Shown here: piece after piece, positions 12,234 to 62,113 of the stretch | Layout: every line of letters begins with the position of its first letter | Numbering within the stretch: position 1 is the first letter of the stretch | NCBI GenBank assembly: GCA_038226425.1 | Contig: JBBRQL010000001.1 | Span: forward strand, 495-64,494 | Source of the DNA: Verrucomicrobiota bacterium | Lineage (GTDB): Bacteria; Verrucomicrobiota; Verrucomicrobiia; Limisphaerales; UBA9464 | Length of the DNA stretch: 64,000 nucleotides | Direction: 5' to 3' | Notes under the pieces: generated by a model | Told to the model about the DNA's origin: nothing | The model's database searches: none | The model's input: only the letters and a program-made list of their open reading frames with translations | Position numbers and translations under genes: made by a program

Positions 12234-12285
12234 TCAGGAAAGGACCGGCCGGGTCGGGCGTCGTGGGAAGGTCGCGACGAAGCCG

Positions 12286-19337: not shown

Positions 19338-19480
19338 TTCCGTCACCTACGGGTTTTTCTGTTTGACCCGACCCCGGCACTTCTTTACGTAGGCCGCAGA
19401 CCAAGCCGTGATCGCCTGCATCGGGGCACTCCCTTGCGGGCTATTTTTTTCGGCCAAGCCGGTCAGAACGCCGAGTCGCC

Positions 19481-21385
19481 ATGTTGAAGTCGAAGACATT
19501 CCTGGGTGTGGATTTTGGGGCCGGGAGCCTCAAGATCGCCGAGTTCGCGGTGACGCCGCAGAACGGGCTGCGCCTGCTCCGCTTCGGCGTGAAGCCGCTC
19601 GGTCTGGCCGGTTCGCAGGACGCCGCCCGCGAGAGCGCGCTGAAGAAGGCGCTGCCGGAGCTGCTCGCCGAGGGCGGCTTCCTCGCGAAGGAGGGCAACC
19701 TCTGCGCGCCCGGCTTCCAGGTCTTCTCCAAGTTCGTCAAGCTGCCGCCCGTCGATACCTCGAAGGTCACCCAGATCATCCAGTACGAGGCGCAGCAGAA
19801 CGTGCCTTTCCCGTTGGCCGAGACCGCGTGGGATTACCAGATCCTCGGATCCGCCCCGAGCGGCGAGCTCGAGGTCCTGCTCGTCGCGATCAAGTCGGAC
19901 GTCGTCGAGAAGCTCTCCGCCATCGGCGAGGCCGGCGGCCTCAAGATGTCGATCGTCGATTCGACCGTCGGCGCCTTGGCGAACGCCTTCCGGTACAACT
20001 ACGCCGACCAGGAGGGCTGCAGCCTGCTGCTCGACATCGGCGCGAAGACCAGCAACGTGCTCATCTTCGAGGCGAACAAGTACTACGCCCGCAGCGTGAA
20101 CGTCGGCGCGAACGCCATCACCCAGGAGTTCGCCGCCGAAGCGAAGCTGCGGTTCGACGACGCCGAGAAGTTCAAGATCTCCGATGGTTTCGTCAGTTTG
20201 GGCGGCGCCTATGAGGAACCGGACGATCCCAAGCAGGCCGCGGTCTCCAAGGTCGCCCGCAACGTCCTCACCCGGCTGCACCTGCAGGTCACGCAGACGA
20301 TCCAGTTCTACCGGACCCAGCAGGGCGGCAGCGCGCCGGTACGTGTCTTCCTGTGCGGTGGCGGTTCGATCATGCCGTACGCTTCCCAGTTCTTCCAAGA
20401 GAAGCTCAACCTGCCGGTCGATTTCCTGAACCCGTTCCGCAACGTGGAGATCGACCCCGGCGTCGACGTCGCGAGCCTCGAGAAATACGCGCAGTGCTTC
20501 GGCGAGGTCGTCGGCCTCGGGTTGCGCAACGTCGCGCAGTGCCCGATCGAGCTGAACCTGATCCCGAAGGCGTCGCTCACCCGCCAACAGTTCAATTCCA
20601 AGAAGCCGTACCTGCTCGCCGCGGCGTTCGTGCTGGCCGCCGGTGTGTTCGCTGTCGGCTGGTTCTACGCCAAGGTCGCCGATGCCCGACGCGACGGCTT
20701 GGCCAAGGTCGCGGCCCAAGCCGAACCGCTGGAGCAGAAGAAGACCAAGCTCGAGGCCGAGGAAGGCAAGCTCAAGAAAGCCGCTGAAGAAGCCGTCCTG
20801 CTGGGCAATTGGCTCCAAGAGCGGACTTACTGGGCGGACATCTTCACCGAGGTCCGCCGCGTCCTGAAACAGACCGAAGACCTCCAGCGGCAAGCGCTAG
20901 GGGTCCCGGTCGGTGTCTGGGTCGACACGTTCCTCTCGACGGAGCCTTCGGTCGCTGCCGGCCAGAGCGCCGAGGAAGAGAAGCCGATGACCGCGATGGA
21001 CCGGTACCGCATGGACCCGATCCTTGCCCGGCGCTACGGACTCGTCCCGAAAGGACCCGCGGGCGGCGAAGGTGGGGCCGAAGGTGGGGCCGGTGCTGCC
21101 GACGCAGGAGCCGGAGCGACGGGTGAAGCGAAGTCCGCCACCCCGAAAGCGGCGGCGGTCAACACCAACGAACTCGCGACGATCAAGGTGACCTTCCGCG
21201 CGGTGAGCATCAACGAATCGGCCAACAACCAGCTGATCTACGCTTTGGAGCGCGAGCTCAAGGCCAGCCCTCTGTTCGATGCCAAGGACACGCAGTTGTC
21301 CGGATCGATGGAGAAGGCGGAAGCGAACGCTCCGACGTTCTCGTTCCCGCTCAGCCTGAAATTGAAGCGTCCCATCAAGCTCTGA
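19481..21385 (+). CDS. pilM: PilM-like actin-fold ATPase fused to a PilN-like bitopic segment (Amuc_1101-like)
   Basis: FLGVDFGAGSLKIAEF, LLLDIGAKTSNV and VFLCGGGSIMP are PilM/FtsA-like. A TM helix YLLAAAFVLAAGVFAVGWFYA follows, then a coiled coil, a low-complexity G/A/E linker and a C-terminal alpha/beta domain. Confidence 0.9.
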   Translation: MLKSKTFLGVDFGAGSLKIAEFAVTPQNGLRLLRFGVKPLGLAGSQDAARESALKKALPELLAEGGFLAKEGNLCAPGFQVFSKFVKLPPVDTSKVTQIIQYEAQQNVPFPLAETAWDYQILGSAPSGELEVLLVAIKSDVVEKLSAIGEAGGLKMSIVDSTVGALANAFRYNYADQEGCSLLLDIGAKTSNVLIFEANKYYARSVNVGANAITQEFAAEAKLRFDDAEKFKISDGFVSLGGAYEEPDDPKQAAVSKVARNVLTRLHLQVTQTIQFYRTQQGGSAPVRVFLCGGGSIMPYASQFFQEKLNLPVDFLNPFRNVEIDPGVDVASLEKYAQCFGEVVGLGLRNVAQCPIELNLIPKASLTRQQFNSKKPYLLAAAFVLAAGVFAVGWFYAKVADARRDGLAKVAAQAEPLEQKKTKLEAEEGKLKKAAEEAVLLGNWLQERTYWADIFTEVRRVLKQTEDLQRQALGVPVGVWVDTFLSTEPSVAAGQSAEEEKPMTAMDRYRMDPILARRYGLVPKGPAGGEGGAEGGAGAADAGAGATGEAKSATPKAAAVNTNELATIKVTFRAVSINESANNQLIYALERELKASPLFDAKDTQLSGSMEKAEANAPTFSFPLSLKLKRPIKL

Positions 21386-21386
21386 T

Positions 21387-22409
21387 ATGGCCTGGATCAA
21401 GCGGAATCTTTTGTTCGTGGTCGGCTTGGCGGTCTCCGTCGCGTTGCTCGGTGCCGGGGTGTTCTACCTCTTCACCACGATGGACGAGGCCGACCGCGTC
21501 AGCGCCGAGCTCGACGCCAAGAACCAACAGCTCGACGGCTTGGTGAAGCGCGAGCCGTATCCGAACTCCGAGAACATCGAGAAGGTCAAGGAGGAGCAGA
21601 AACGGGTCGAGGCCTTCAAAAAAGATGCCCGCACCCGCTTCGGCCAGCTCGTGAGGCCCGGCTCGCTGGACAACGCATCGTTCAAGTCCCTGCTCGAATC
21701 GACGATCGCCGGGTTGACGCGCCAGTCCGAACGCATGGGGGTCAAGCTGCCGGAGAAGTACGACTTCACCTTCGCCGAGCAGCGGAAGCAACTCCAGTTG
21801 GCGACCAACACGCTGGTACCGCTGGCCACACAACTGGACGATCTGGACAACATCTGCCGCGTGCTCTTCGATGCCAAGATCCATTCCTTGGTGGCGTTGA
21901 AGCGGTCGGGGATGGCTTCGGGTGAAGCGATCGGCAGCGCGGATCTGTTGACCAAGAAGGTCGGCACCAATGCTTTGGCCGGTGGCTCGATCCACCCGTA
22001 CGAGATATCGTTCCAGTGTTTCAGCACCGAGCTGGGCAATGTCCTGGCCGGGTTCCTGAACTCTCCTCAGGCCTATGTGCTCAAGACGATCAATGTCGAG
22101 CGGGGTTCGACTTCCACGACAGCGGATCCGAACGCGGCTGCGGTAGGGTCGGGCCCCGTCCCGGGCCGGCCGGGAATGGATATGGCGATGGCTCGTCGCT
22201 ACGGGCTCGTGGGCGGCGGGAACCGCTACGGCCAACCCCAGCCTCAGGCCCCGGTCGCCGCCCCTGCGCCGACGCGCGCCGGAGAGACCGTCCTCGAAGA
22301 GAAACCGCTCCGGGTGACCATCGGCCTCGAAGTGGTCAAGCTCGCGGTCGCTCCGGTCGCACCCGTCGTCGACGCACCGGCCAAACCGACCACTCCCTCC
22401 GCTCGCTGA
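21387..22409 (+). CDS. Amuc_1100-like pilus-associated protein (PilO-like topology)
   Basis: N-terminal TM LLFVVGLAVSVALLGAGVFYLF, then a coiled coil. The block PYEISFQCFSTELGNVLAGFLNSPQAYVLKTINVERG and the C-terminal EEKPLRVTIGLEVVKL parallel what I recall of Akkermansia Amuc_1100 (PLEIAFQGDRESVLKAMNAI...FTVNSIRIRNE; KEQVFVQVSLNLVHF). Confidence 0.75.
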   Translation: MAWIKRNLLFVVGLAVSVALLGAGVFYLFTTMDEADRVSAELDAKNQQLDGLVKREPYPNSENIEKVKEEQKRVEAFKKDARTRFGQLVRPGSLDNASFKSLLESTIAGLTRQSERMGVKLPEKYDFTFAEQRKQLQLATNTLVPLATQLDDLDNICRVLFDAKIHSLVALKRSGMASGEAIGSADLLTKKVGTNALAGGSIHPYEISFQCFSTELGNVLAGFLNSPQAYVLKTINVERGSTSTTADPNAAAVGSGPVPGRPGMDMAMARRYGLVGGGNRYGQPQPQAPVAAPAPTRAGETVLEEKPLRVTIGLEVVKLAVAPVAPVVDAPAKPTTPSAR

Positions 22410-22412
22410 CCC

Positions 22413-23207
22413 ATGCAATTCCTCAAAAAGCATTACGAGAAGATCGTCCTCGGCGTGGTCTTGCTCTGCGTCGCCGCGACGTCGCTGGTTCTCACGATGC
22501 GTGCCGGCGATGAGCGGCAGAAACTCGCGGAGCAGCTCCAACAGAAAGTCGGCGGGAAACAAAAGCCTCTGAAGCCGGTCGAACTTGCCGGCAGCATGGC
22601 TTCGTTGGAACGGTTGTCGAAGCCTTCGGTGGTCACTCTTGCCGGCGAGCACAAGACCTTCAATCCGGGCACGTGGATCCGCAAGGCCGACTCCAGCATC
22701 GCACCGGTCGGTGACAAGGGCGGCCGGGGCGCCGAAGGCCTCACGCTGGTCGCCGTCCGCCCTCTCAATCTTTCGGTGACCTATGCGTCGGTCGCCGGCA
22801 CCGGTGAACCGTACCGTTACCAGTTCATCGTCGCACGCGACCATGAGAAACAGGCACCGAAGCGCCGCCCGACGACGATCTCGCTGACCGAGGGGACCAA
22901 GAACGATCTTTTCGTCCTCCGCGAGGTCCACGGTCCCAAGGACAATCCGACCGACGTCGTGATCGAGGTCCTGTCCGGCAACGAGCGCGTCACCTTGTCC
23001 AAGGACAAGACCTACACCAAGGGGATGGATTTCGCGGCAGACCTCCGCTACGAGGCCGAGAACAAGAACTTCACCGCGAAACGTCCCGACGAATCCTTGG
23101 TGTTGTCCGGTGCGACGTACAAGATTGTTGCCATCCAAAAAGACGAGCTTGTAGTCTCAGCGCCTAATCAAGTCCGCACCACGATCAAGCTCTCCCCCGC
23201 GCCCTGA
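22413..23207 (+). CDS. Amuc_1099-like pilus-system protein (bitopic, PilP position)
   Basis: 264 aa with the N-terminal TM IVLGVVLLCVAATSLVLT. It sits between the Amuc_1100-like gene and the secretin, with 3-nt and 48-nt gaps. Confidence 0.65.
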   Translation: MQFLKKHYEKIVLGVVLLCVAATSLVLTMRAGDERQKLAEQLQQKVGGKQKPLKPVELAGSMASLERLSKPSVVTLAGEHKTFNPGTWIRKADSSIAPVGDKGGRGAEGLTLVAVRPLNLSVTYASVAGTGEPYRYQFIVARDHEKQAPKRRPTTISLTEGTKNDLFVLREVHGPKDNPTDVVIEVLSGNERVTLSKDKTYTKGMDFAADLRYEAENKNFTAKRPDESLVLSGATYKIVAIQKDELVVSAPNQVRTTIKLSPAP

Positions 23208-23255
23208 CCCGAGTCCGATCCTTTACGCTTTCGAGTTCCAACCGAGAAGAACCCC

Positions 23256-26012
23256 ATGACCAAAGTGTCCAAACTCCTCCGCGTGTTCCTGCTGTGCGCC
23301 TGCGTCCAAGGCGCGTCGGGGCAGGCCCCGAGCCAGATCGCTGAAGAAGAAGCCATCCGGCGCCAGGAAAAGTCGATCCTGTTGCGCAGCACGCTTGAGG
23401 CAGCTCAGACGGCGCAGAAACAGAACGATCTCAAGACCGCTGCCAAGCTCTATGAAGATGCGTGGTCGTTGACCGAGGTGCTCGGGGCGAACGTGGAGGC
23501 CGAACGCCGCCAGACCGTGGCCGGTCTTTCCGGATCGCGCCTTCAGCTGGCCATCGCCGCGCAACGCGCCGGCGATGCGCGTGAAGCGGACACCCAGGTC
23601 ACCCGCGCGCTGAAGGTCGATCCGAACAACACGGTCGCCAAGAGCTTCAAGAAGGACAACGACCGCCGTCTGGCCGACCTTCAGGGCAGATTGCCGAGCG
23701 AAGCCGTCTTGGCCCGTGCAGCGGACCACAGCACCAACATGGTCAAGGTCGCGTCCTCGGTCCAGGACGGCGTGGTGCTGTACCAGATGAACAAACTGGA
23801 CGAGGCCGAGGAGGTCTTCCAGAAGGCGATCAAACAACAACCTGAAAACCAGGCCGCCTATTACTACTTGAACCTGATCCGCGAGGCGAAGTTCACCCGT
23901 GCGGCCAAGAACAAGTCGCTCACCACCAAGGACCGGCTGGTCGAGGTCGAACAAGCTTGGGAAACGCCCAAGTCGAACCTCCCCATCGCCAACCCGTGGG
24001 CCAAGACCAATCTGATCCACACCGGCAACGGACGCCAGATCATTGCGAGCAAGCTCGACCGGATCATCCTCAACGAGGTCAAGTTCGACGGTCTTCCATT
24101 GACCGAGGTCGTCAAGTACCTCGAAGAACAGGCCAAAGCCCGCGACCCCGAGAAGCGTGGTGTCAATTTCCTCATCAGCTCCAGCATCGACGTCCCGACC
24201 CCGCAGGCGACCCAGCAGTTCGACGCGACCGGCCAACCGGTAGCTTCGGCTCCGGTCGAACCGCTTGACCTCGGCAATGTGGTCATCCGCCTCAACCCCG
24301 GTCTGCACAACGTCCGGTTGGCCGATGCATTGGACGCCGTGACCAAGGTCGCTGAAAAACCGCTCAAGATATCGATCGAGGACTACGCGGTCATCTTCAC
24401 GCAGCGCCTGCCGGAGCCCGTCCAGTTGCACGCACGGCAATTCCGTGTCGATCCGAACACGTTCATGCAAGGGCTCCAGAGCGTTTCAGGCATCGACCTT
24501 GGTACGACCTTCCAGAGCACCGGTGGCGGCGGCGGCGGTGGTGGCGGCGGCGGCGGTGGTGGCGCCCAAGGCGGCCAAGGTGGTGGCATCTTCAATGTTC
24601 CCCGCGTCGATGTGAGTTCCAGCAGCAGCCAAGGTGGCGGTGGCGGAGCGGGTGGGCAGGGTGGACAAGGGATCACCGGTGTCACACGCACCAACTTGAT
24701 GGCCAATGTCCAAGTGATGGTTCGCCAATTTTTTGCGGCGGCCGGCGTCAACTTCCCGCAGACAGCCGTCCCCGGCCAAGGCGGGGCCGGTGGTGGCGGC
24801 GGTTTCGGAGGCGGCGCGCAGCAACAGCAGTTCGGTCTCAACGGCCAGGCCCAAGAAGTCGATGCGAAGGCGCTGTTCTTCAATGACCGGACCGGCATCT
24901 TGTTTGTGAGGGCGACTTTGTCCGACCTCGATATCATCGAGAAGGCCATCCAGGCGTTGAACATCGCTCCGGCCAACATCGAGATCGAGGCACGTTTCGC
25001 GGAGGTCAGCCAGACTGACAGCAAGGCGCTCGGGTTCCAATGGTTCTTGGGAAATTTCCTGATGGGCGGTGGCAAAGTAGGTCTTAGCGGTGGAACCGCT
25101 CCTTCGTATCAAGGGCAAGCGTCTGCGGCCAACCCCGACGGGGTGTTCCCGCAGTACGGGAACATCTTGCCTTCGGGCAGTGACCAGAACGTCACCGCCG
25201 GCCTTCGGAACATCGATGGAAATCAAAGTGCCATCCCGACCGTGGCGACGCTGAGCGGCATCCTTACCGACCCGCAGTTCCGCGCGGTGATCCAAGCACT
25301 CGACCAGCGTGATGGCGTCGAGTTCCTCATCGCACCGAAACTGGTCACCCAGAGCGGGCGTCAAGCCCATATCGCGGTGAACGATGCCCGCACGGTCGTC
25401 GTGGGTGTCGGTCAGAACCAACAAGGTTCTGGCGGCGGTACCGGAAACACTGCCAACGGTGTCAACGGCAACACGGGCGGCGGCGGCGCCGTCGCAACCG
25501 CGATCCAATACCAGACCACGGTGTTCCCGTTCGGTCCGACCTTGGATGTCGTCCCGTACGTCTCTTCCGATGAGTCGTCCATCCAGATGACCATCATCCC
25601 GAGCCTCACGGAATTCGTCGGCTACGATGATCCGGGCGGTTTCGTGCCGCAGGCCCAGTCCGTCGCCGGGAACACGGTCGGTACCTCGTTGAAGGCGGTC
25701 TTGCCGCTCCCTCGTATCCGGGTTCGCCAAGTCGTGACCAGTGCCACGGTCTGGGACGGCCAGACGGTCGTCTTGGGCGGCCTCATCTCCGAAGATGTGA
25801 AAAAATCGCGGGACAAGGTGCCGGTCCTGGGTGACATCCCGGTGCTGGGACGCCTCTTCCGCAGCGAGAACTCGCTGAACATCAAGAAGAACCTCATCAT
25901 CTTCGTGACGCCGACGATCCTCGATCCGTCCGGCCATCGCGTGAACGATCCGCGTAGCCTCCCGTTCGATCCGAACTCCTTCCCGGCCTTGGCTCCGACC
26001 GCGATCAAATGA
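23256..26012 (+). CDS. pilQ: outer-membrane secretin (PilQ/GspD family, Amuc_1098-like) with N-terminal TPR region and Gly-rich linkers
   Basis: Signal LLRVFLLCACVQGASGQA and a TPR-like N-terminus. STN-like LDRIILNEVKFDGLPLTEVVKYLEEQ. Secretin core ...VTSATVWDGQTVVLGGLISEDVKKSRDKVPVLGDIPVLGRLFRSENSLNIKKNLIIFVTPTIL. Confidence 0.9.
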   Translation: MTKVSKLLRVFLLCACVQGASGQAPSQIAEEEAIRRQEKSILLRSTLEAAQTAQKQNDLKTAAKLYEDAWSLTEVLGANVEAERRQTVAGLSGSRLQLAIAAQRAGDAREADTQVTRALKVDPNNTVAKSFKKDNDRRLADLQGRLPSEAVLARAADHSTNMVKVASSVQDGVVLYQMNKLDEAEEVFQKAIKQQPENQAAYYYLNLIREAKFTRAAKNKSLTTKDRLVEVEQAWETPKSNLPIANPWAKTNLIHTGNGRQIIASKLDRIILNEVKFDGLPLTEVVKYLEEQAKARDPEKRGVNFLISSSIDVPTPQATQQFDATGQPVASAPVEPLDLGNVVIRLNPGLHNVRLADALDAVTKVAEKPLKISIEDYAVIFTQRLPEPVQLHARQFRVDPNTFMQGLQSVSGIDLGTTFQSTGGGGGGGGGGGGGGAQGGQGGGIFNVPRVDVSSSSSQGGGGGAGGQGGQGITGVTRTNLMANVQVMVRQFFAAAGVNFPQTAVPGQGGAGGGGGFGGGAQQQQFGLNGQAQEVDAKALFFNDRTGILFVRATLSDLDIIEKAIQALNIAPANIEIEARFAEVSQTDSKALGFQWFLGNFLMGGGKVGLSGGTAPSYQGQASAANPDGVFPQYGNILPSGSDQNVTAGLRNIDGNQSAIPTVATLSGILTDPQFRAVIQALDQRDGVEFLIAPKLVTQSGRQAHIAVNDARTVVVGVGQNQQGSGGGTGNTANGVNGNTGGGGAVATAIQYQTTVFPFGPTLDVVPYVSSDESSIQMTIIPSLTEFVGYDDPGGFVPQAQSVAGNTVGTSLKAVLPLPRIRVRQVVTSATVWDGQTVVLGGLISEDVKKSRDKVPVLGDIPVLGRLFRSENSLNIKKNLIIFVTPTILDPSGHRVNDPRSLPFDPNSFPALAPTAIK

Positions 26013-26099
26013 ACGGATGCGCCACGGAATTGGAAGTCCGCGGCGCGTGCAGGGAACCAATGTTGACAACTGTGAACGGACAGTCAAATTGACAAGCTT

Positions 26100-27605
26100 A
26101 TGCCGAGTCTGAGTTTCAAAACGCAGAGACCTTGCCTAGGTCGGGCCGGATGGGTCGCCGCTCTCGCGGTGATGTCCGCGTGGGCTGGGTTGGGATCCAC
26201 CGGCTTCGTCGACGATGGCGGTGAGTTCCTGCCCTTGGGCGTCCCTGCCGGGGACCAGACGAATCCTGCCTTGGCCATCAACGCCGAGGGCGGTTACGTG
26301 GTCTGGCAGGAGAACAGCGGGGCTGCCGGCACCTACACGATCCGGGCGCGTCGCCTGAACCGGGCGTTGACCGGATGGTACCGTTCGTTCGTCGTGAATT
26401 CCGCCGTTGAAGGCAGCCACGAAGAACCGCAAGTCGTCCAATTGGCCGACGGTGGAGCCGCCTTTTTCTGGCGCGGTGGACCACTCGGCAAACAAGGGAT
26501 CTACGCGCGTTTTCTGAAGCCCGGTGGCGGCAATGCAGCCAACTTCGTCGGCGATGATCTCGAGATCAGCGCCGCGGGTCGCGGGCAGAACCAGAATGTC
26601 AGCGCCACGGCTCTCAAGGACGGCAGCATTCTCGTGACCTGGGCCAACTACGGCGACGACGGAAGCGGTTTCGGCGTCTTCGCTCAACGTATTTCGGCCA
26701 CCGGTGAGAAGATCGGCGGCAAGTTCCAGGTCAACTCCACCACCGCTTCCAACCAGCGCTCGCCGTCGGTGACTGCGATGCCCGACGGAGGTTTTACCAT
26801 CGCATGGGTCTCGGAAGGCCAGCGGACCGACCCGTCCCGCGACATCCTTTGCGACGTCTACTCGCGTGTCTTCGGACCCTCCGCCAAGGCGACCACCGGC
26901 GAGATGCGCCTGAACCAAGGCCTCAACTTGGCTGCCACCCCTTCGCTGGCCGCCAACGCGGACGGTGGGTTCGTTGCCGCCTGGGCTGAGCGTGATCAAG
27001 CTGTGGCCGCGAACGGCTGGGACATCATGGCCGGTTCGTTCAACCGTGACGGGGTGGCCATCAAGCCGAACGTCCGGCTCAACACCTTTCTCAAGTCGGA
27101 CCAGCTCGCGCCCAAGCTGGCCGCTGTCAACGGTTCCGTGATGGCGACGTGGACCAGCATGGGCCAGGACGGCTCACGGGAGGGCGTGTTCGCACGCAGC
27201 TTCGCCCCGACATTGGAACTGCTGGACGAGGAGTTCGGGGTGAACCAGACGACCGTCAGCCAGCAGATGGATCCAGTGGTCGCCGCGGACTCGACCGGCC
27301 GGGTCTTGTCCGTGTGGACCTCCTTCAATTCCATCGAGAGCGGTTTCGATCTGGTCGCCCGCAAGTTCGCCGCTCCGGCGTCCATCACCAAGCTGGCCTG
27401 TGACATCGTCAAGACCGCCGAAGGTGCCCGGTTGACTTGGCAGACCGAACCGGGCCGCACCTACCAAGTTCAACGCTCGCTCGACCCGATGGCTTGGGAC
27501 GCCGCTGAAAAAAGCGACCGCACGGCTGTCGGCTCATCGGATTCCATGGCGTTCCCGCTCGGCGCGTCCGGTGGGACCTTCTTCCGCGTCGTACGGCTTC
27601 CTTGA
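26100..27605 (+). CDS. secreted seven-repeat (beta-propeller-like) protein with shared C-terminal module
   Basis: Signal WVAALAVMSAWAG. It has seven repeats of the type Q..P.v..l.DGGF.v.W.s...DGS..GVFA.rf. The C-terminus is TYQVQRSLDPMAWDA...FFRVVRLP. Confidence 0.8.
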   Translation: MPSLSFKTQRPCLGRAGWVAALAVMSAWAGLGSTGFVDDGGEFLPLGVPAGDQTNPALAINAEGGYVVWQENSGAAGTYTIRARRLNRALTGWYRSFVVNSAVEGSHEEPQVVQLADGGAAFFWRGGPLGKQGIYARFLKPGGGNAANFVGDDLEISAAGRGQNQNVSATALKDGSILVTWANYGDDGSGFGVFAQRISATGEKIGGKFQVNSTTASNQRSPSVTAMPDGGFTIAWVSEGQRTDPSRDILCDVYSRVFGPSAKATTGEMRLNQGLNLAATPSLAANADGGFVAAWAERDQAVAANGWDIMAGSFNRDGVAIKPNVRLNTFLKSDQLAPKLAAVNGSVMATWTSMGQDGSREGVFARSFAPTLELLDEEFGVNQTTVSQQMDPVVAADSTGRVLSVWTSFNSIESGFDLVARKFAAPASITKLACDIVKTAEGARLTWQTEPGRTYQVQRSLDPMAWDAAEKSDRTAVGSSDSMAFPLGASGGTFFRVVRLP

Positions 27606-27612
27606 TCAAGTT

Positions 27613-29160
27613 ATGTCGCGTCATTTTCTAGCGTTGTTCATCGCTTCGTTGGTGTTCATCGCACCAAGGCAAGTTCATGGTTTTTCTCTCCTAGGAGCAC
27701 GGCCAAGCTGGCAGACGCCCGAAGTCGGGCTCGCGCCACCGTACCCGTCCGGAGTTGGGGGGGTCATGTATCTTGGCGAAGGATATCGCTTCAACATGCC
27801 GGTGTTGACCTACGCCTACGATGCCTCGTTTCTCCGTTATTTCGGGGCGAACGGAGTCGCAGCCATCGAATCCGCGATGAAGGTATTGAACGACCTTCCA
27901 GCGGCCGATAGCATGAGTGCCACGTTGGAGGAGTTTCCAACGACCACATTGCGCCACAACGCCACAGCAAGCGCTCTGTCGATCATCGATCTCAAGACGA
28001 CGACACTGTCGTTCATGCTAGAGCAACTCGCTGTCGCGGCTCCGGAAAACTATGTCTGGTCCATCCGCGCACATTTCACGGACCCGGCCGGTATCGACCA
28101 CTTTTCCGTCATCAATCCGAATTATGATCCGGTCACGTTGACTCAGTCATCCTTCATCAACGGATATCAGTATACCTACCAGATCCGCCAGACTGATACA
28201 GCGGAGTGGAAAACCGCCAATTTCCCGGTCGACCCCTTGGCGCCTAGTTTCACTACGGTGGCGAATTATGGACAAGCGTTCTTCGCGAGGGGCCGAGGTG
28301 GTTCGTTGGCGTTCGGTCCTGGTTCCTATTTCCCAGCATTGACCCGTGAGGACGTGGCAGCATTCCGATACATGCTGAGCACGACAAATTACGCAGTGGA
28401 ATCCCTCCTGCCTGATGTGATCGCTTCGACAGGTGGTGCTCTTGGAGTGAGCGGTGGAACTTCGGTCGGCAGCGGTGGTCTTGGCGGCGGTGGAGGTGGT
28501 GGCTTTTCGGGAGGGTTTGGAGCACCGTGGAGTCCTGCCTTCTCGGTTGCAGTCGGTGGAGCTGGGACTTCGAATCCTCCTTGGTCGATCGTGGCCGCCA
28601 GCACCAATGTCGCGACCAATGCGGTGGTGGTCACGGTGACCGGTGGTTTGCCTTCGGTCGTGAACGCCCTTCGGCCCGGTGTCGGCAAATATAGTTTTGT
28701 CCAGATCGGTTACGATTCGATTCTTGGTGCGGCGACCCGTCCCTACTTGGTGACTTGGCTTGATCGATATGTGACCAACAGTGTGACCCGGGTACAAGCG
28801 CTTGCCCGACAGATCACGACCCCCGACATCCTCTTTTCGGCCGCCGATCTTGGGGTGATCGATCATCTTCCGATTCTCAGTTCAATTACGGCTGATGGGT
28901 TTGTGAACGATTCCGCGCTGAACAGGGTCAACGGGGGCGGATTCGGAGAACTGGCCGGTCCCGGCATCATCACCTCCGGCAAGGAGATCACCTTCAGCAA
29001 GATCGGGCGCTACTACATCAACACCGAGGAGACCACCGAAGCCGACGGCTTTCTTTTCGGTGGATGGGGCTCGTTCGACGGCTCTACCAACGCGCCTGTG
29101 TTGTATCCCAGTGGAACCTCGATCAAGGCGATCGAGAAGCTGGTGCTCGGCGGACGGTGA
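27613..29160 (+). CDS. secreted hypothetical protein with internal poly-Gly tract
   Basis: Start ATG 27613 (MSRHFLALFIASLVFIAPRQVHG, signal peptide) lies 8 nt after the upstream stop. It contains GSGGLGGGGGGGFSGGFG. No family was recognised. GC is clearly lower than the flanks. Confidence 0.75.
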   Translation: MSRHFLALFIASLVFIAPRQVHGFSLLGARPSWQTPEVGLAPPYPSGVGGVMYLGEGYRFNMPVLTYAYDASFLRYFGANGVAAIESAMKVLNDLPAADSMSATLEEFPTTTLRHNATASALSIIDLKTTTLSFMLEQLAVAAPENYVWSIRAHFTDPAGIDHFSVINPNYDPVTLTQSSFINGYQYTYQIRQTDTAEWKTANFPVDPLAPSFTTVANYGQAFFARGRGGSLAFGPGSYFPALTREDVAAFRYMLSTTNYAVESLLPDVIASTGGALGVSGGTSVGSGGLGGGGGGGFSGGFGAPWSPAFSVAVGGAGTSNPPWSIVAASTNVATNAVVVTVTGGLPSVVNALRPGVGKYSFVQIGYDSILGAATRPYLVTWLDRYVTNSVTRVQALARQITTPDILFSAADLGVIDHLPILSSITADGFVNDSALNRVNGGGFGELAGPGIITSGKEITFSKIGRYYINTEETTEADGFLFGGWGSFDGSTNAPVLYPSGTSIKAIEKLVLGGR

Positions 29161-29188
29161 CACCCACCAGCCCTTAAAGTCCTAAGAC

Positions 29189-32074
29189 ATGAAACGTTTT
29201 CCATTCCGGTCGGTGCTCGCTGCGCTGGTTGTCTGGTGCTTTGTTCCATCGGCTCAAGCCTATGTGAACAACGGTGCCGTGACCATCGTGCCGGTCATCG
29301 ACGATGTGTCCTTTGTCAACAACGGCCTGATCCAGATCGCCACTGAACTTCCGTTCGAGACCCAGAACACGCTGTATTTCACCAATTCCGGGACCATCCT
29401 CGCCGGCAGCTTCTTCGGAGGATCTTTTGCGAACGGAGGCGTCCGCTTCGAGTACATCAACGGAGCGACCGGATATCGCAGCCCGGCCTCTGTCATCGAG
29501 AACGAACAGGGAGCCGCCATCACTGGTCGCCCTTACGTGCTGTTGAACGCGACCAACATCGTCAACCGAGGGACGTTCACGGTGCCGGCGGATGGGCTCA
29601 TCCGTTTGACCGGACAGAACGTCGACCTCTCCCGCGGAAAACTTGATCTCGGTGCCTTGGACGGGAACAGCCTCAGCGATGGATACGTCACCGACACGAA
29701 CCTGTTTGTCGGGGCCTCCGGTGTGACGGATCTTCATTGGGGGACCGACACGGTCGATCTTCCCCTTGCGTCCTTTTTCAAACTGTTGCCGAGCGGGGCG
29801 CAGGTCACGACACCGGGATATCGCGTATTTCCCGACGGCCGCATCGTGATGTCGTTGAAATCGCCGTCCACGTATCTGTACCAGCAGTTCGACGGCCCGC
29901 CCAAGACGCCCACCAACCAGATCATCCAGGCCGTGTTCGTGCTCAACGGGAACACGAACATCAACGTGGATGTGTCCTTTCTCGATAGCGATGAACGGAC
30001 GAACAGGTTCAAGATCCCGACGGTCCAGTTCAGCGGCTTCGAGACCAACGTGATCACGAGACAGAAGCAGCTCAGGTCGATCTGGTTGTCGGATTCCTTG
30101 ACCGCGAATTCGCTGCTCTTCGCGGACACGAATGTGTTCCTGAACACCAACGGGATTGCCGGAAGTTTCCGCCCCGAGAATTTCGATATCTATCGCAACG
30201 GGGTCGGCGGGGCACGCCCGAACGGGACGCTGACGAACGACACGTTCCTGAAGTTCCTGTCCCCCGAGTTCACCAACGGGATGGCGTACACCAACGCGAC
30301 CGTTCCTGCGTTCTATTCGGCCTACAAAGCCTATATCAACGGTCAGTTGACCTTCGGTGCGAATCTTCCGGATGCCGACATCACCAACTACGGCGGCCGG
30401 CTCGAGATCAACGCGGACAACCTGAATCTTCAGGACGCGCGCATCCGCGGTGTGGGTGTCGTCAACGCCAAGACCAAGAACTTGGTGAGCTCTGCTGGAG
30501 CGGTCATCGACGTGCCCTATCTCTATTATGATCTGGATTCCGCGGATGGGAACTTGGTCTTGCGCAATCTTATCGCACCTTCGGTGAGCCGGTTCGCGTC
30601 CGGGACCATCCAAGCATGGAGCGCACTTTGGACCAATGGCTTCTCGGTGAACGTCACCAACACGACGGTCGGGACGGACGGGACCACGAACTCCGAGGTG
30701 ACCGCGCAGGATTACCAGACCGTCTTCCACGTGCTGCTGGTCGCGAGCGCTTTGGACACTATCGGGTCGGTGGACATCACGGGGTTGAACACCCGTGCGA
30801 CGAATACGACAGTCGCCGACAAGGTGTCCATCTCGCGGAGGTTCCAGACCAGTTCGGACACCTTGTCCATCGATGGCGAATTCAAGCTTGGTACCTTGAC
30901 CGCCAGCACCCTGTTCGACTTCGGCGCCACCAATGCGCCGAACCTCCGGTACCTTACCAACCGGGGAATCATGAACATCGCCGGCTACGCTAATTTCGGG
31001 AGCGATCGCGCGACACCCTACGAGGTCTTCAACAACTCGCGGACGAATCTTGCGACCGGTTTCTCGATAACCTCGAAAGTCTTCCAAAACTCGGGCTCGT
31101 TGCAGTCCTCCTTCGGCCCCATCTCGATCGTCGCCGGTTCCGCTGCGCTCGATGGGAACGATAGTTTGGTGCGTTCTCCGAAGGATATCTCTCTGACGGC
31201 GACGACCCTCAAGGTCCGTGGCGGGAGCGTACGGAGCAGCAGAGGCATCCAGCTCGCCGTGACGGATTCGCTCACGGATGCAGGTATCAGCACGCCCACC
31301 ACATTTGTGAGCAGCTATGGATTCTCGCTCGCAACGCTTCCGAAGGTGAGCAGTCTGCTTGGCGCCAACTTCGAGGTCAACACCACCGAGGGCGGCACGG
31401 CCGACATCTCTTGGCCGGGCAATGATCTCGGTGCCGGTCCATCCGGCTACGTGAACAATGCGGTCATCGGCCATCTGGTGCTCAACTTGGCTCCGGACAG
31501 CCTGTTGACCCTCACCGAGACCGGCTCGAAGAACGCGCTCTACGTCGACTACTTGGAGATGAACTCCGCCATCGCTGATGACTTGGCTTCCTATGTCGAC
31601 ATCGGGGCAGGCATGACGCTCTACTTTGCCGACTCCAACATCCCGATCGAGAAGCTCGACGGGGCTCTTGGCGGCCATATCAAGTGGGTTTCGACCTATG
31701 CCGGACCGCGCAGCGGTGTGGATGTCGCGCTGGGCAACGGCAAGACCATCCGCATCAACCGCGCGCTGTTCGATAGCAAGTCGATCGACTCGGACAGCGA
31801 CGGTATCGCCAACGGATTCGACACGACGCCGTTCGGTGGCGTCCCGGTGACCGTCAAGGTCATCAACCTGCCGCCGTTGACGACCGAGATCTCTTGGATC
31901 GGCGCCCCGAAGACGGCTTACCGTGTCGAGGCCGCGGCCTCGTTGTCCCCGACGCTATGGGACTTGGTGTCCCGCGTGACCAACAATGCCGCTGTGTCCG
32001 TGCCGCTCAGCGTCCGTGAACCGGTGCCCGCCGACAATGCGGTGCGCTACTTCCGTGTGACCTACGAGCCCTGA
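29189..32074 (+). CDS. large secreted repeat protein (possible beta-helix/adhesin-like) with TSP3-like Asp motif and shared C-terminal module
   Basis: Signal MKRFPFRSVLAALVVWCFVPSAQA. It has N/T/G-rich repetitive strands (NATNIVNRGTFTVPADGLIRLTGQNVDLS...) and DSDSDGIANGFD. The C-terminus is TAYRVEAAASLSPTLWDL...RYFRVTYEP. Confidence 0.8.
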   Translation: MKRFPFRSVLAALVVWCFVPSAQAYVNNGAVTIVPVIDDVSFVNNGLIQIATELPFETQNTLYFTNSGTILAGSFFGGSFANGGVRFEYINGATGYRSPASVIENEQGAAITGRPYVLLNATNIVNRGTFTVPADGLIRLTGQNVDLSRGKLDLGALDGNSLSDGYVTDTNLFVGASGVTDLHWGTDTVDLPLASFFKLLPSGAQVTTPGYRVFPDGRIVMSLKSPSTYLYQQFDGPPKTPTNQIIQAVFVLNGNTNINVDVSFLDSDERTNRFKIPTVQFSGFETNVITRQKQLRSIWLSDSLTANSLLFADTNVFLNTNGIAGSFRPENFDIYRNGVGGARPNGTLTNDTFLKFLSPEFTNGMAYTNATVPAFYSAYKAYINGQLTFGANLPDADITNYGGRLEINADNLNLQDARIRGVGVVNAKTKNLVSSAGAVIDVPYLYYDLDSADGNLVLRNLIAPSVSRFASGTIQAWSALWTNGFSVNVTNTTVGTDGTTNSEVTAQDYQTVFHVLLVASALDTIGSVDITGLNTRATNTTVADKVSISRRFQTSSDTLSIDGEFKLGTLTASTLFDFGATNAPNLRYLTNRGIMNIAGYANFGSDRATPYEVFNNSRTNLATGFSITSKVFQNSGSLQSSFGPISIVAGSAALDGNDSLVRSPKDISLTATTLKVRGGSVRSSRGIQLAVTDSLTDAGISTPTTFVSSYGFSLATLPKVSSLLGANFEVNTTEGGTADISWPGNDLGAGPSGYVNNAVIGHLVLNLAPDSLLTLTETGSKNALYVDYLEMNSAIADDLASYVDIGAGMTLYFADSNIPIEKLDGALGGHIKWVSTYAGPRSGVDVALGNGKTIRINRALFDSKSIDSDSDGIANGFDTTPFGGVPVTVKVINLPPLTTEISWIGAPKTAYRVEAAASLSPTLWDLVSRVTNNAAVSVPLSVREPVPADNAVRYFRVTYEP

Positions 32075-32104
32075 GTTAGCTCCATCTTTCGACGTCATCT
32101 GATT

Positions 32105-35100
32105 ATGCTTCGCCAGCGACTTTGGGTTCTTGCCGTAGGTCTCCTGTTATCCGGGGCCGTCCTGCGTGCCGAGGAAAGCTCCGACACCATAGTGATCGCG
32201 GGCCACAAGGCCCATGCCACGCGGATCTTCGCCAAGCACAAGCAAGGCGGTATCGGGATCGGTTCCCAGGTCCGCCCGGCTGCTTTCGCGAAGATCGCGT
32301 CGGTCGGTCTGAACGTGCGGAAAGAGTACTCCCTCGTTCCGGGATTGTTGAGCTTGGACGAGCCGAAGGGAGGACTCAGCACCTCGGCGATCCTGACGAC
32401 GGACATGCGCATCCGTCGCATGGCCGAGCGGATCGAGACTTTGAAGGCCACGGGACTCTTCGAGTATGTGGAGCCCGATTTCGTGGTGACGGCGAACGCG
32501 GTTCCCGATGATCTCCGCTTCCGCGATGGAACGCTCTGGGGACTACAGAACACGGGCCAAGACGGCGGCACCGCCGGTGCCGACATCGATGTGGTCAGAG
32601 CTTGGGACATCACGACGGGGACCAACTCCGTTGTGGTCGCGGTCATCGACACCGGTATCCGCTACACGCATCGTGACCTCGCCGCGAACGTCTGGACCAA
32701 TCCTGGAGAAATCCCGGGCAACGGGATCGACGACGACAAGAACGGGTATGTCGACGATGTCCATGGCATCAACTCGCTGAACGGTTCCGGTGATCCGTAC
32801 GACGACAATTTCCACGGCACCCACGTTTCCGGGACGATCGGCGCCGCGGCGAACAACGGTGAGCCCCATGTCGGCGTGGCATGGAAGGTATCGTTGATGG
32901 GTCTGAAGTTTTTGGATTCGAACGGGAGCGGCTTCCTCTCGGATGCCATCGAGTGCATCCAATACGCGGTCAAGATGAAGGTGCCCATCTCCAACAACAG
33001 TTGGGGCGGTGGCGGCGCGGACCAGGCGTTGGCGGATGCCATCCTTGCGGCCGGAAACGCCGGGCACCTGTTCGTCGCGGCGGCCGGGAACGCGGCGTCC
33101 AACAACGACATCGAGTTCGACACGCCTGCCAGTTATGCGTTCGACAACATGATCTCGGTCGCGGCGATCAATCGTAAGGACCAGCTCGCCGACTTCTCCA
33201 ACTTCGGCAACCGTACCGTCCACATCGGTGCTCCCGGCGTCGACATCTATTCGACATGGACCTCGTCCGACAGTTCATATGATGTGATCAGTGGAACGAG
33301 CATGGCATGTCCTCATGTCGTCGGTGTCGCGGCGTTGGTCTTGGCCGCGAATCCGAAGGCGAACCTTTTCGAGCTCCGGCAGCGCATCTTGAACTCCGCG
33401 GTACCGACCACCGACCTTGCCGGCAAGACCGTCACGGGGGGGCGCGTGAGCGCGTATCGTGCGGTGAGCGGGGTCGTCGACGGGAAGCTCGAGCTTTCTC
33501 TCACGCCTCCGAGCGGGTCCGCGCTCCTGGAAGGGAACGCCACGCCGATCTATCTCCGTGTGACCGACTTGGTGGCCGTCACGAATGCCGTCATCGTCGC
33601 TACCCTCAACGGCCCCGGATTGACCGATGTCCCGTTGGTGTTCACCAACAACGGCGTCCTTCCGGATGTCATCGCTCTCGACGCGACCTATTCCGCAACG
33701 TTCCCGGCGGCAGCCAAAGGGTTCTACATCTTGGATGTGATCGCCACCGCCAAAGGCAAGGAAGGAGTGACGAATTCGTTCAGCTACTCGGTCCAACCTC
33801 GCCCCGACAACGACCAGTTCAAGAAACCCAAGAAGATCGCGTTGGCCGGCGAACAACTCCGGGGCGAAGACACCCGGTTGTCATCTTTCGAGCCTGGTGA
33901 GTCCTCCACGTTTGCCGGTCCGGATGGTGTCGGATCGCTTTGGTATGCTTGGACGCCTACCAAGTCCGGAACGGCCTTGATCGACACGTTCGGGACCGGT
34001 GTGCCCGTGGCGGTCGGGGTCTTCACCGGCGACAACCTCAACACATTGGCTTTGGTGGCGTCCGGTGTGCCGGTGGCTCCTAAGACGGCCACGACCTTCT
34101 CGTTCAATACGGTGGGCGGGACGACCTATCGGATCGTGGTGATCGGTAAGGGTGAGGCAGGTCGCGGCATCTTCCGGTTGCGGTTGACCCCAGATGCGGT
34201 CGTCGACCGGACCGCGCCACAGGTCGCGTTCACAAGCCCCGAGAACGGGTTCATCGCGACGACGAACCAGGTCATCGTCAGAGGGATCGCGATCGACCCA
34301 AATCCCGGAGCCTCCGGGGTCCGCCAAGTGTTGGTGAACGGTCAGAGCGCCGGGATCACCAATGGCGTCTGGTCCGCTAAAGTGGCGTTGAAGACCGGTA
34401 TCAACACCGTCACTGCCGTGGCCCAAGATTTCGCGGAGAACGTCTCCGCATCGGTGAGCATCAACATCAATCTACGGGCCGCGAGCATCGCGAACGACGG
34501 ATTCATCGGTGCGGCGGAGTTCGCCGACCTGATCGGCACGGAGAAAGGGAGCAACATCAACGCGAGCCGTGAGTTCGGGGAACCGCAGCACGGAGGGAGC
34601 GAGGGCGGACATTCTGTCTGGTGGCGATTCACCGCCCCGTCGGACGGCGTGCTCGGCCTGAGCACCGCGTCATCCAGCTTCGACACGTTGCTCGGCGTGT
34701 ATCTCGGCGACACGGTCGACAACCTGACCACCTTGGCGTCGAACGATGACGAGAAAGCGGGCACCAGCCAGAGCGCAGTCGCTGTCGCCCTGCGCGCCGG
34801 TCAGACGGCCCGCATCGCGGTGGACGGGTTCTCCGGCGCGACGGGAGCGATCAGCCTATCGCATACATTTCTGAAAGGCACTGTGCGCCCGGTAACGGTG
34901 CTGGCTGGTGCTGGCGGCAGCGTCTCGGCGTCGATCAGCAATCTTCCGGTCGTGCTCAAAGGAGTCTATGCCGACGGCACGACCTTGAATCTGACCGCTA
35001 CCGCTGATCCGCGGTACGAGTTCATCGGCTGGACGGGGACGACCAAGTCGTCGGACAACCCACTGAAGGTCGTGGTCGGGAGCGAAGTCAGCTTGATCGC

Positions 35101-35761
35101 CAATTTCCAGGTCGTGGCGTTCAGCGACGACTTCGAATCCGGCGACTTGAAGCATCTTGCTTGGGTGACCGGCGGGTCGACCCCTTGGGGAGTCCAGACC
35201 AACACTGTCTCGCTGGGCCGCTTTGCAGCGAAAGCGGGCACGATCACCGACAACCAATGGAGTTCGTTGGTGGTCGATGCGAATTCTTTCACCGGTGAAG
35301 GCGCTTTCGATGTCAAGGTCAGCTCCGAAGCGGGATGGGACCAGTTGGAGTTCTACGTGAACGGCACGGTGGTCCAACGCTGGTCCGGTGATGTAGCATG
35401 GACGACCTTCACTTTCCCGGTCGCGTCCGGAGCCAATCGTTTCGAATGGCGTTACACCAAGGACGCAGTGAACAGCGTCGGCGAGGACACCGCTTGGTTG
35501 GACAACGTCCAGCTCCGCATCCGTCCTGAAGTGGACCCGACAATCCCGGTCGTCTTGACGTTCTCGGGCTATAGCGACGCAGGGGCTGAGATCGAGGTCC
35601 GCGGACAGATCGGTCAGGCTTACCAAGTCCAAGCGTCCAACGACTTCGTCCAATGGACGACGATCAGCACCAAGGTGAACAGCACCGGCACGTTCACCGT
35701 GAGCGATTCCGCGACCTTCGGTCGTTCGGAACGCTTCTATCGCGTCATCCTTGCTCCCTGA
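32105..35761 (+). CDS. secreted subtilisin-like serine peptidase (S8 family) with roughly 800-aa C-terminal extension and shared C-terminal module
   Basis: Catalytic triad contexts VAVIDTGI (Asp), HGTHVSGTIGA (His) and SGTSMACPHVVGVAAL (Ser). Signal LWVLAVGLLLSGAVLRA. The C-terminus is QAYQVQASNDFVQWTT...RFYRVILAP. Confidence 0.9.
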   Translation: MLRQRLWVLAVGLLLSGAVLRAEESSDTIVIAGHKAHATRIFAKHKQGGIGIGSQVRPAAFAKIASVGLNVRKEYSLVPGLLSLDEPKGGLSTSAILTTDMRIRRMAERIETLKATGLFEYVEPDFVVTANAVPDDLRFRDGTLWGLQNTGQDGGTAGADIDVVRAWDITTGTNSVVVAVIDTGIRYTHRDLAANVWTNPGEIPGNGIDDDKNGYVDDVHGINSLNGSGDPYDDNFHGTHVSGTIGAAANNGEPHVGVAWKVSLMGLKFLDSNGSGFLSDAIECIQYAVKMKVPISNNSWGGGGADQALADAILAAGNAGHLFVAAAGNAASNNDIEFDTPASYAFDNMISVAAINRKDQLADFSNFGNRTVHIGAPGVDIYSTWTSSDSSYDVISGTSMACPHVVGVAALVLAANPKANLFELRQRILNSAVPTTDLAGKTVTGGRVSAYRAVSGVVDGKLELSLTPPSGSALLEGNATPIYLRVTDLVAVTNAVIVATLNGPGLTDVPLVFTNNGVLPDVIALDATYSATFPAAAKGFYILDVIATAKGKEGVTNSFSYSVQPRPDNDQFKKPKKIALAGEQLRGEDTRLSSFEPGESSTFAGPDGVGSLWYAWTPTKSGTALIDTFGTGVPVAVGVFTGDNLNTLALVASGVPVAPKTATTFSFNTVGGTTYRIVVIGKGEAGRGIFRLRLTPDAVVDRTAPQVAFTSPENGFIATTNQVIVRGIAIDPNPGASGVRQVLVNGQSAGITNGVWSAKVALKTGINTVTAVAQDFAENVSASVSININLRAASIANDGFIGAAEFADLIGTEKGSNINASREFGEPQHGGSEGGHSVWWRFTAPSDGVLGLSTASSSFDTLLGVYLGDTVDNLTTLASNDDEKAGTSQSAVAVALRAGQTARIAVDGFSGATGAISLSHTFLKGTVRPVTVLAGAGGSVSASISNLPVVLKGVYADGTTLNLTATADPRYEFIGWTGTTKSSDNPLKVVVGSEVSLIANFQVVAFSDDFESGDLKHLAWVTGGSTPWGVQTNTVSLGRFAAKAGTITDNQWSSLVVDANSFTGEGAFDVKVSSEAGWDQLEFYVNGTVVQRWSGDVAWTTFTFPVASGANRFEWRYTKDAVNSVGEDTAWLDNVQLRIRPEVDPTIPVVLTFSGYSDAGAEIEVRGQIGQAYQVQASNDFVQWTTISTKVNSTGTFTVSDSATFGRSERFYRVILAP

Positions 35762-35789
35762 GGCGGGGGCGGACGCCTTGGCTTGAGCG

Positions 35790-36374
35790 ATGAGATTGCT
35801 CGGCGTCACGGGCGGTATCGGGATGGGCAAATCGGCATCTGCCGCGCTGCTCGCGGCCCGAGGTATCCCGGTCGTGGACACGGATGATCTCGCCCGGCAG
35901 TTGGTGATACCAGGGTCGGCTGCGCTCGCGGAGATCCGCATCGCGTTCGGTCCGGATTGCATCGGTGCCGATGGAGCCTTGGACCGCCGATGGCTAGCCC
36001 AGCGCATCTTCTCTGATCCGGCGGCCCGTGGCCGGTTGGAGCAGATTCTCCATCCCCGCATCGCCGCGTCGTGGCGCGCCGAGGTGGAACAGTGGCGGCG
36101 AGATGGCACTGCGACCGGAGCCGTGGTCATCCCGTTGTTGTTCGAGAAAGGCTACGGTCCCGATTTCGACGCCGTGGTCTGTGTCGCCTGCAGCAGTGGG
36201 ACCCAGCGGAGCCGCCTACGGGACCGAGGTTGGTCCGAGGAGCAGATCGATGCGCGGAACTCGACCCAACTCGGCGTCCCGGAAAAGATGTCGCGCAGCC
36301 AGTTCGTCGTCTGGACGGAAGGCAGCTTGGAAGCCCACGCCGGTCAGTGGCGGCGTGTCCTCGGCCGGCTTTGA
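35790..36374 (+). CDS. coaE: dephospho-CoA kinase
   Basis: LLGVTGGIGMGKSA (P-loop), VDTDDLAR, ILHPRI and IPLLFE. Confidence 0.9.
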   Translation: MRLLGVTGGIGMGKSASAALLAARGIPVVDTDDLARQLVIPGSAALAEIRIAFGPDCIGADGALDRRWLAQRIFSDPAARGRLEQILHPRIAASWRAEVEQWRRDGTATGAVVIPLLFEKGYGPDFDAVVCVACSSGTQRSRLRDRGWSEEQIDARNSTQLGVPEKMSRSQFVVWTEGSLEAHAGQWRRVLGRL

Positions 36375-61955: not shown

Positions 61956-62113
61956 GACGGCTTCCCTCGACCCTAGCCGGCCACGCGGCAAATAGCTATC
62001 TGTCGCATCGGGCCGGGTGCGGTCCGAAGGGGCGGTCAGTTGAGGTGAGAAAGCGGGTGCGGGAACGGGGGATGCAGCGGTGAAGCCGGTCGCGGACCTC
62101 CTTGGTGTCGCGT

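Follow-up and report, generated by a model that had tools for sequence, protein, structure and literature searches.

We analysed a 64-kb stretch of DNA (64,000 nucleotides, referred to below as the window) from a Verrucomicrobiota bacterium, in which a PilQ-type secretin gene is followed by four large genes, here called A, B, C and D. The genes that precede A correspond to the core of the Amuc_1098-1102 cluster of Akkermansia (Ottman 2016 and 2017), now called MUL2. An earlier reading of the same DNA (the original prediction) had taken the four proteins for candidate cargo or a surface module of the pilus-like system. We found that A, B and C accompany the secretin in nearly all related loci, whereas D occupies a variable position. 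The block between the secretin and coaE appears to be specific to a Pedosphaerales/Limisphaerales-type clade. The locus is composed of the following genes (aa, amino acids; nt, nucleotides).

19481-21385, + strand: PilM-like protein (Amuc_1101-type, 634 aa), first gene of the locus, with PilM_2 and Amuc_1101_fam matches
21387-22409, + strand: Amuc_1100-like protein (340 aa), NCBIfam Amuc_1100_fam
22413-23207, + strand: Amuc_1099-like protein (264 aa, weak match), NCBIfam Amuc_1099_fam
23256-26012, + strand: secretin (Amuc_1098/PilQ-type, 918 aa), with TPR N-terminal region and Gly-rich tracts
26100-27605, + strand: protein A (501 aa), with signal peptide, seven ~55-aa repeats and an FN3-like C-terminal domain (nt 27363-27605)
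27613-29160, + strand: protein B (515 aa from the ATG), with signal peptide, alpha/beta and beta domains and a Gly-rich linker
29189-32074, + strand: protein C (961 aa), with signal peptide, all-beta body and an FN3-like C-terminal domain (nt 31826-32074)
32105-35761, + strand: protein D (1218 aa), S8 subtilase, C-terminal domain at nt 35519-35761
35790-36374, + strand: coaE (dephospho-CoA kinase; Pfam CoaE E 2e-42), the conserved downstream boundary of the cassette

The open reading frames (ORFs) of A-D were confirmed as four tightly spaced genes on the same strand, with gaps of 87, 7, 28, 30 and 28 nt along the series secretin-A-B-C-D-coaE. Their third-position GC content (GC3) of 0.78-0.80 is in line with the adjacent genes. 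Each protein has well over 90 homologues in the databases, so all four are real genes. The Sec-type signal peptides that had been proposed for the four proteins could be recognised by inspection: each N-terminus has a basic region with 1-3 Lys or Arg residues, a hydrophobic core (maximal 10-aa hydropathy 2.0-2.9) and a cleavage motif of small residues. None of them starts like a pilin, as had also been proposed, and the prepilin motif G[FYMW][TS][LIVM][LIVMP]E was absent from every frame of the window. A terminator-like site was located at 19339-19353, just 5' of the PilM gene. No such sites were found in the gaps between the genes of the locus, and the intergenic gaps contained neither terminators nor promoters beyond shuffle expectation. 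We infer that A-D are co-transcribed with the pil genes.

The identity of the core genes was examined with Pfam and NCBIfam models. The PilM-like protein matched Pfam PilM_2 (E 1.5e-34, 119.9 bits against a cut-off of 27), and its best NCBIfam model was Amuc_1101_fam (E 1.7e-139); the score of 466 bits is below the equivalog cut-off of 650, so the protein is a homologue and not an equivalog. The next protein matched Amuc_1100_fam over its full length (E 2.1e-23, 83 bits against a cut-off of 180), and its orthologues at related loci carry precomputed matches to Pfam PF28028 (Amuc_1100). The Amuc_1099_fam match of the third protein was weak (E 8.8e-4) and limited to the N-terminus (residues 4-72), and its gene is found in the same place in all related loci. 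The secretin matched Pfam Secretin (E 4.1e-31, 108 bits) in addition to TPR. Its best NCBIfam model was Amuc_1098_fam (E 1.6e-105, below the equivalog cut-off), and type_II_gspD was also matched (E 4.5e-44, below cut-off).

The gene order is that of MUL2, with a PilM-like protein, an Amuc_1100-like protein, a protein that here matches Amuc_1099 only weakly, and a PilQ-type secretin; coaE is a neighbour as in Akkermansiaceae. A 2026 ISME J paper describes synteny of MUL2 across Akkermansiaceae; the other genes named in the legend of its synteny map are the secretin, dephospho-CoA kinase, rho and 3-dehydroquinate dehydratase (PMC13174399). The present locus differs in several respects: a 9.7-kb A-B-C-D block lies here between the secretin and coaE, the PilM gene is adjoined by a HAD/TPMT fusion gene instead of an Amuc_1102-like gene, and all Amuc_109x NCBIfam scores fall below the equivalog cut-offs. 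The same legend names no large secreted-protein genes (PMC13174399), which agrees with the original prediction that the Akkermansia locus is not followed by genes of this kind. In the Akkermansia and MUL2 literature that we searched, there was no mention of genes like A-D after the secretin, and the cassette itself was not described in any of the literature searched. Amuc_1082-1096 of A. muciniphila are described as an iron-uptake region (PMC12552655).

Linkage of the cassette to the secretin

We used two sets of related loci to follow the gene neighbourhood. For the forward set, one genome per species was searched by secretin alignment, and the best 80 of 472 relatives were retained, with secretin identities from 96% to 45%. 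The order PilM-1100-1099-secretin-A-B-C was kept in these 80 species-level loci wherever the contig was long enough. Among informative loci, A was present in 67/68, B in 64/64 and C in 61/61; wherever the relative order of the three could be read (64/64 loci), it was A, B, C. For the reverse set, 80 metagenome contigs were retrieved with a profile of B. Of the informative contigs, 58/58 had A upstream of B, 61/61 had C downstream of it, and 18/19 had the secretin upstream. In addition, the genomic context of six B or C homologues, down to 25% identity, was the same locus each time (6/6). Many of the metagenome contigs with B homologues (L089-L168) start within or at the secretin gene, probably because of assembly breaks at the long Gly tracts of the secretin, which in the window copy are found at residues ~421-470 and ~505-525.

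As a control, we followed the genes upstream of the locus: the HAD/TPMT neighbour was kept in 19/52 loci and RecG in 7/52. Since ordinary neighbours are mostly lost while A-B-C are kept, the linkage of the trio to the secretin exceeds general synteny. The one locus with the secretin and no cassette (L069) has the order secretin, 5'-3' exonuclease, CoaE, which may be the ancestral arrangement. Homologues of A, B and C that carry an organism name come from Pedosphaera, Limisphaera/Limisphaerales and 'subdivision 3', and none from Akkermansia. The original prediction had based the functional link on adjacency only; that link is now much stronger for A-B-C, which are colinear in relatives. It did not extend to D, since no more than 12 of the loci below have a D-like gene after C.

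The gene after C could be read in 58 loci, which gave the following tally.

DUF5122/Calx-beta giant protein: 17/58 loci
CoaE directly: 13/58 loci
S8 protease like D: 12/58 loci
small unclassified ORF: 9/58 loci
PIG-L: 3/58 loci
M36 fungalysin: 2/58 loci
S53 sedolisin: 2/58 loci

One distant locus has several proteins of the fourth-slot type in series. The fourth slot is thus subject to non-homologous replacement by other secreted proteins, and D is an accessory in a variable slot, not a core member. The alternation of three unrelated protease families and giant adhesin-like proteins after a fixed trio is the strongest hint that the locus has a role with extracellular proteins.

We also compared the divergence of each protein with that of the secretin. 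Spearman rho was 0.68-0.79 for PilM, 1100 and 1099, compared with 0.48 for B, 0.29 for C and -0.07 for A (the last from tblastn scores of similarity to the window copy, L006-L085). A-B-C thus diverge in step with the secretin to a much lesser degree, as expected of exposed rather than core parts. The identity of A was 27-31% where that of the secretin was 54-58%, yet A reached 37-43% where the secretin had 45-48%, a pattern which suggests episodic evolution or exchange of A.

The four proteins and their C-terminal domains

Protein A had been described as a 7-repeat propeller. Seven ~55-aa sequence repeats of the form 'DGGFvvxW...Gvfaqrf' were indeed found, and they fit a seven-blade beta-propeller, though this fold remains putative. 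No Pfam or NCBIfam family matched A at E<=0.01; in particular, the PilY1 domain of Pfam was not matched, and a profile search of the PDB gave only FN3-like matches. The 165 homologues of A are all unannotated and from Verrucomicrobia, and most of them also carry an FN3 domain and TSP3-like motifs. In being a Sec-exported non-pilin with a putative seven-blade propeller that is encoded with pilus genes, A resembles PilY1. It differs in having no vWA-type N-domain and no PilY1 Pfam match, and minor pilin genes are not nearby.

Protein B is represented in public data by a gene call of 464 aa (P0001), which starts 51 codons 3' of the ATG at 27613 and so lacks both the signal peptide and the sequence FSLLG. 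A longer alternative ORF begins with GTG at 27571. Conservation among 77 homologues extends from F24/G28 onward, which supports the 515-aa form over the public call; the conserved mature N-terminus FSLLG directly follows the signal-peptide cleavage site. The AlphaFold2 (AF2) model of B (predicted local distance difference test, pLDDT, 81; predicted template modelling score, pTM, 0.83) has an alpha/beta domain at 24-270 and a beta domain at 350-500. The Gly tract noted in the original prediction corresponds to residues 273-342 and is a disordered linker in the model. No Pfam or NCBIfam family and no sequence relative in the PDB were found for B, and there was no structural neighbour in the PDB (best Foldseek E 0.93). 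The C-terminal domain common to A, C and D is absent from B; longer B homologues finish in a He_PIG Ig-like domain. A motif near the N-terminus of B (residues 57-96, 'YRFNMPVLTYAYD...AAIESAMKVLNDLP') could be aligned with strand 1 and helix A in the catalytic domain of MMP-1. A degenerate metzincin was not supported beyond a lead (hhalign probability 1.9%, Foldseek probability 0.13, no HExxH).

The AF2 model of C (pLDDT 88.8, pTM 0.72) shows a long all-beta body that ends in a small beta-sandwich, and the modelled body suggests a solenoid-like, elongated shape. The sequence contains a TSP3-like Asp-rich motif. No Pfam or NCBIfam family was found for C. Like B, C was modelled confidently and had no significant match in the PDB: Foldseek gave only weak hits to beta-helical adhesins (HMW1 2odl, E 0.6; tapirin 6n2c, E 0.63; 4wa0, E 2.1), and phage fibre-like proteins are also among the non-significant structural matches. 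The C-terminal domain of the model resembles FN3 with a TM-score of 0.4-0.5. Tapirins of Caldicellulosiruptor are large beta-helical substrate-binding proteins encoded beside a type IV pilus (T4P) locus (bioRxiv 10.1101/359786). The weak Foldseek matches of C to 6n2c and 4wa0 concern tapirin C-domains; they lack significance, and the sequences show no similarity. Moreover, Caldicellulosiruptor is a member of the Firmicutes, which have neither an outer membrane nor a secretin.

Protein D matched Pfam Peptidase_S8 (PF00082) with E 2.4e-52 over residues 174-438 (about nt 32624-33418), as expected from its original assignment to the S8 proteases. The catalytic residues Asp182, His237, Asn297 and Ser399 are intact and lie in the motifs VAVIDTG (178), HGTHVSG (237), NNSWG (297) and GTSMA (397). 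Judged by these motifs, D is a bona fide S8 subtilase. Several beta-sandwich domains follow the catalytic domain, and matches to Pfam Glucodextran_B and Flg_new_2 were also obtained.

A, C and D all end in a domain of ~75 aa with the motif '...W....G..Y.V..S......W......(R)FYRV...P' (FYRV type), which was found in no other ORF of the window. In most loci it also lies at the very end of the A and C homologues. A model trained on the locus detected 111 FYRV-type copies from PilM onward, compared with a single one in the 340 kb that precede the loci. The domain corresponds to no Pfam family (22 C-terminal domains were scanned, with only sub-threshold noise) and gave weak profile matches to FN3 and discoidin-like modules in the PDB. 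A database profile placed it at the extreme C-terminus in 79 of the 133 top matches. The same profile matched 22,556 protein clusters, often with many internal tandem copies, and the idea of a locus-specific tag was rejected as stated on these grounds. The taxonomy of the matched proteins was uninformative, as almost none of them carries a name.

In one sub-lineage (L044, L045, L048, L054, L086, L087) the FYRV type is replaced on both A and C by another domain ('...GLFxGxV...QGxxxEK...GFFL...', ALT type). The types found on A and C of the same locus were FYRV/FYRV in 46 loci and ALT/ALT in 5, with no mixed pairs. This matched switch suggests a common partner for both tails. The arrangement recalls the cargo of the type IX secretion system (T9SS), in that unrelated exoproteins share an extreme C-terminal beta-sandwich of ~75 aa, here with two alternative types. 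It differs from T9SS in that the translocon would be a secretin and not SprA, and in that the FYRV domain also occurs as internal tandem repeats, unlike a dedicated signal. The C-terminal domain of A, C or D was matched by no NCBIfam family at E<=0.01, the models of T9SS sorting domains among them. In the cassette-free locus L069, a 119-aa ORF (16132-16491) located ~1.7 kb beyond coaE ends in an FYRV-type domain after a LamG-like tail; it could represent a fragmented or frameshifted gene.

A candidate surface module and its alternatives

We interpret A, B and C as a surface or exoprotein module of a MUL2-type secretin system, with a swappable effector in the fourth slot, and give this interpretation a probability of roughly 55%. 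The trio probably works with the secretin machine. A-B-C would extend the PilM/Amuc_1100/Amuc_1099/secretin operon in a lineage-specific way in Pedosphaerales/Limisphaerales-type Verrucomicrobia, being inherited and probably also transcribed together with it. Going by their signal peptides, the three proteins are predicted to be exported to the periplasm by Sec; they would then most likely reach, or stay at, the cell surface by passing through or docking at the T4P-like or type II secretion system (T2SS)-like machine with the adjacent secretin. An extracellular or surface location of A-C is suggested by the TSP3, FN3 and He_PIG modules, by the beta-solenoid shape and by divergence uncoupled from the core genes. 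At the surface, propeller A, two-domain B and elongated beta-solenoid C may together bind substrates or mediate adhesion. The fourth slot would provide a swappable effector, which is the S8 protease in this genome and, in other loci, a protease of family M36 or S53 or a DUF5122/Calx-beta giant. The FN3-like C-terminal domain of A, C and D could act as a common docking or retention element. The process might run in the direction of secretion and display, or of polymer capture for uptake, as proposed for MUL2 in Akkermansia.

Related arrangements are found in other systems. In Dichelobacter nodosus, subtilases are secreted optimally only when type IV fimbriae are present, so that a secretin-bearing T4P-type machine is tied to Sec-dependent exoproteins, including subtilisin-like proteases with C-terminal extensions (PMC3480457). 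However, the protease genes of D. nodosus lie outside the pil operon, and no conserved trio like A-B-C is known there. TcpF of Vibrio cholerae is a further example of T4P-dependent exoprotein secretion. The T2SS (Gsp) likewise combines a secretin channel in the outer membrane with Sec-exported folded exoproteins such as proteases, but no GspE, GspF, GspC or pseudopilin genes were found in the window, where the inner-membrane parts are of the PilM/N/O type. To our knowledge, T2SS substrates are usually not a fixed trio encoded behind gspD.

Several observations weigh against A, B and C being a module of the adjacent machine. No T2SS or T4P ATPase, platform protein, pilin or pseudopilin was found among the annotated ORFs of the window. 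In ~14 loci (among them L004/L066, L033, L058, L064, L068, L070, L073, L077 and L080-L083) a ~1-kb housekeeping gene for the 5'-3' exonuclease stands between the secretin and A. In L121 (1-7602), A-B are found directly behind two ABC-2 permease genes without a secretin; no other unlinked case occurred among the 19 informative contigs, and this one could stem from a rearrangement or a chimeric assembly. The 87-nt gap that precedes A (26013-26099) contains two TTGACA hexamers, which makes a separate promoter for A possible, although a consensus scan called none. The number of protein clusters with the FYRV-type domain and its frequent internal repeats mean that it may be an ordinary FN3-like module. 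Finally, since the loci are all from a single order, very few evolutionary events may underlie the switch of domain type.

In an alternative scheme, the cassette would be co-located and co-expressed with the pil genes, with its products exported by another route (e.g. a separate T2SS encoded elsewhere in the genome) and acting independently, for instance as a polymer-degrading or adhesive set under joint regulation with the pilus-like system. The missing export ATPase and pseudopilin genes, the housekeeping gene that can separate the secretin from A, the A-B pair of L121 away from a secretin and the wide occurrence of the C-terminal domain in other proteins all fit such a scheme, as do the fourth-slot proteins, which are ordinary exoenzymes. 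Co-regulation alone, however, poorly explains a secretin linkage that survives at identities as low as 25-45% when other neighbours have disappeared, and we consider export by another route unlikely. That the adjacency is due to chance or phylogenetic inertia and has no functional meaning is hardly credible. All loci examined do belong to one order-level clade, but the roughly 140 independent loci included just two exceptions, the housekeeping genes on the flanks were not kept, and A and C always have the same type of C-terminal domain.

A different division of labour would make A, B and C accessories of the machine, either a PilY1-like tip or priming complex or a periplasmic or outer-membrane assembly on the secretin, and leave the fourth gene as the only cargo. 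Near-universal presence next to the secretin, in fixed order and with one copy of each gene, is what machine parts typically show. The C-terminal domain of PilY1 is a seven-blade beta-propeller-type fold, which the putative propeller of A would resemble. The conserved FSLLG of mature B right after the cleavage site also fits, and in the absence of an Amuc_1102-like pilin gene beside PilM another protein might fill that role. On the other hand, there is no pilin-type N-terminus and no Pfam PilY1 or pilotin match among the three. Akkermansiaceae and L069 have the core locus without A-B-C, so the trio is not essential to the machine; A and C do not diverge in step with the secretin, and homologues of the trio bear adhesin-like modules (FN3, TSP3, He_PIG). 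We regard the accessory role as unlikely. More speculatively, by analogy with T9SS, the beta-sandwich at the extreme C-terminus could be a sorting or attachment tag of two interchangeable types that switch jointly on A and C, with B, the sole tag-less member and without a known structural neighbour, as an adaptor for reading the tag; the trio and its variable fourth gene would then represent an unrecognised branch of PilMNOPQ-type secretin systems in Verrucomicrobiota, devoted to exoprotein display or secretion. We consider this quite improbable.

The Amuc_1100/MUL2 locus is among the most studied gene clusters of Verrucomicrobia on account of its probiotic effects, and the role of its machine is debated between pilus, secretion and glycan capture or uptake. 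The trio and the swappable protease or adhesin gene of a large environmental sister clade provide concrete candidate substrates or partners. Loci with and without the cassette offer a natural comparison, and cultured hosts such as Limisphaera exist. A, B and C also constitute three sizeable families without family assignment, and the widespread FN3-like terminal domain is missing from Pfam.

Flanking genes and base composition

The genes that flank the locus are housekeeping genes: RecG, a pyruvate:ferredoxin oxidoreductase (POR)-family enzyme, the HAD/TPMT fusion, a phosphoribosyltransferase and DeaD. The HAD/TPMT fusion is the gene 5' of PilM and ends at 19321. No tRNA or Rfam features were detected in the window. 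GC content is 0.58-0.63 over 20000-36000, which comprises the pil genes and the cassette, as compared with 0.65-0.72 in the flanks. A horizontal-transfer island, considered because of this dip, was not supported, as the locus is syntenic and vertically conserved in relatives. The RecG-like helicase (12073-15315, + strand) is unusually long (1080 aa) and contains, at residues 645-719 between its DEAD and Helicase_C domains, a stretch that resembles an IS200/Y1 transposase (24.7 bits). An ORF of 1660 aa at 57009-61991 (- strand) has a coding-like GC3 of 0.90.

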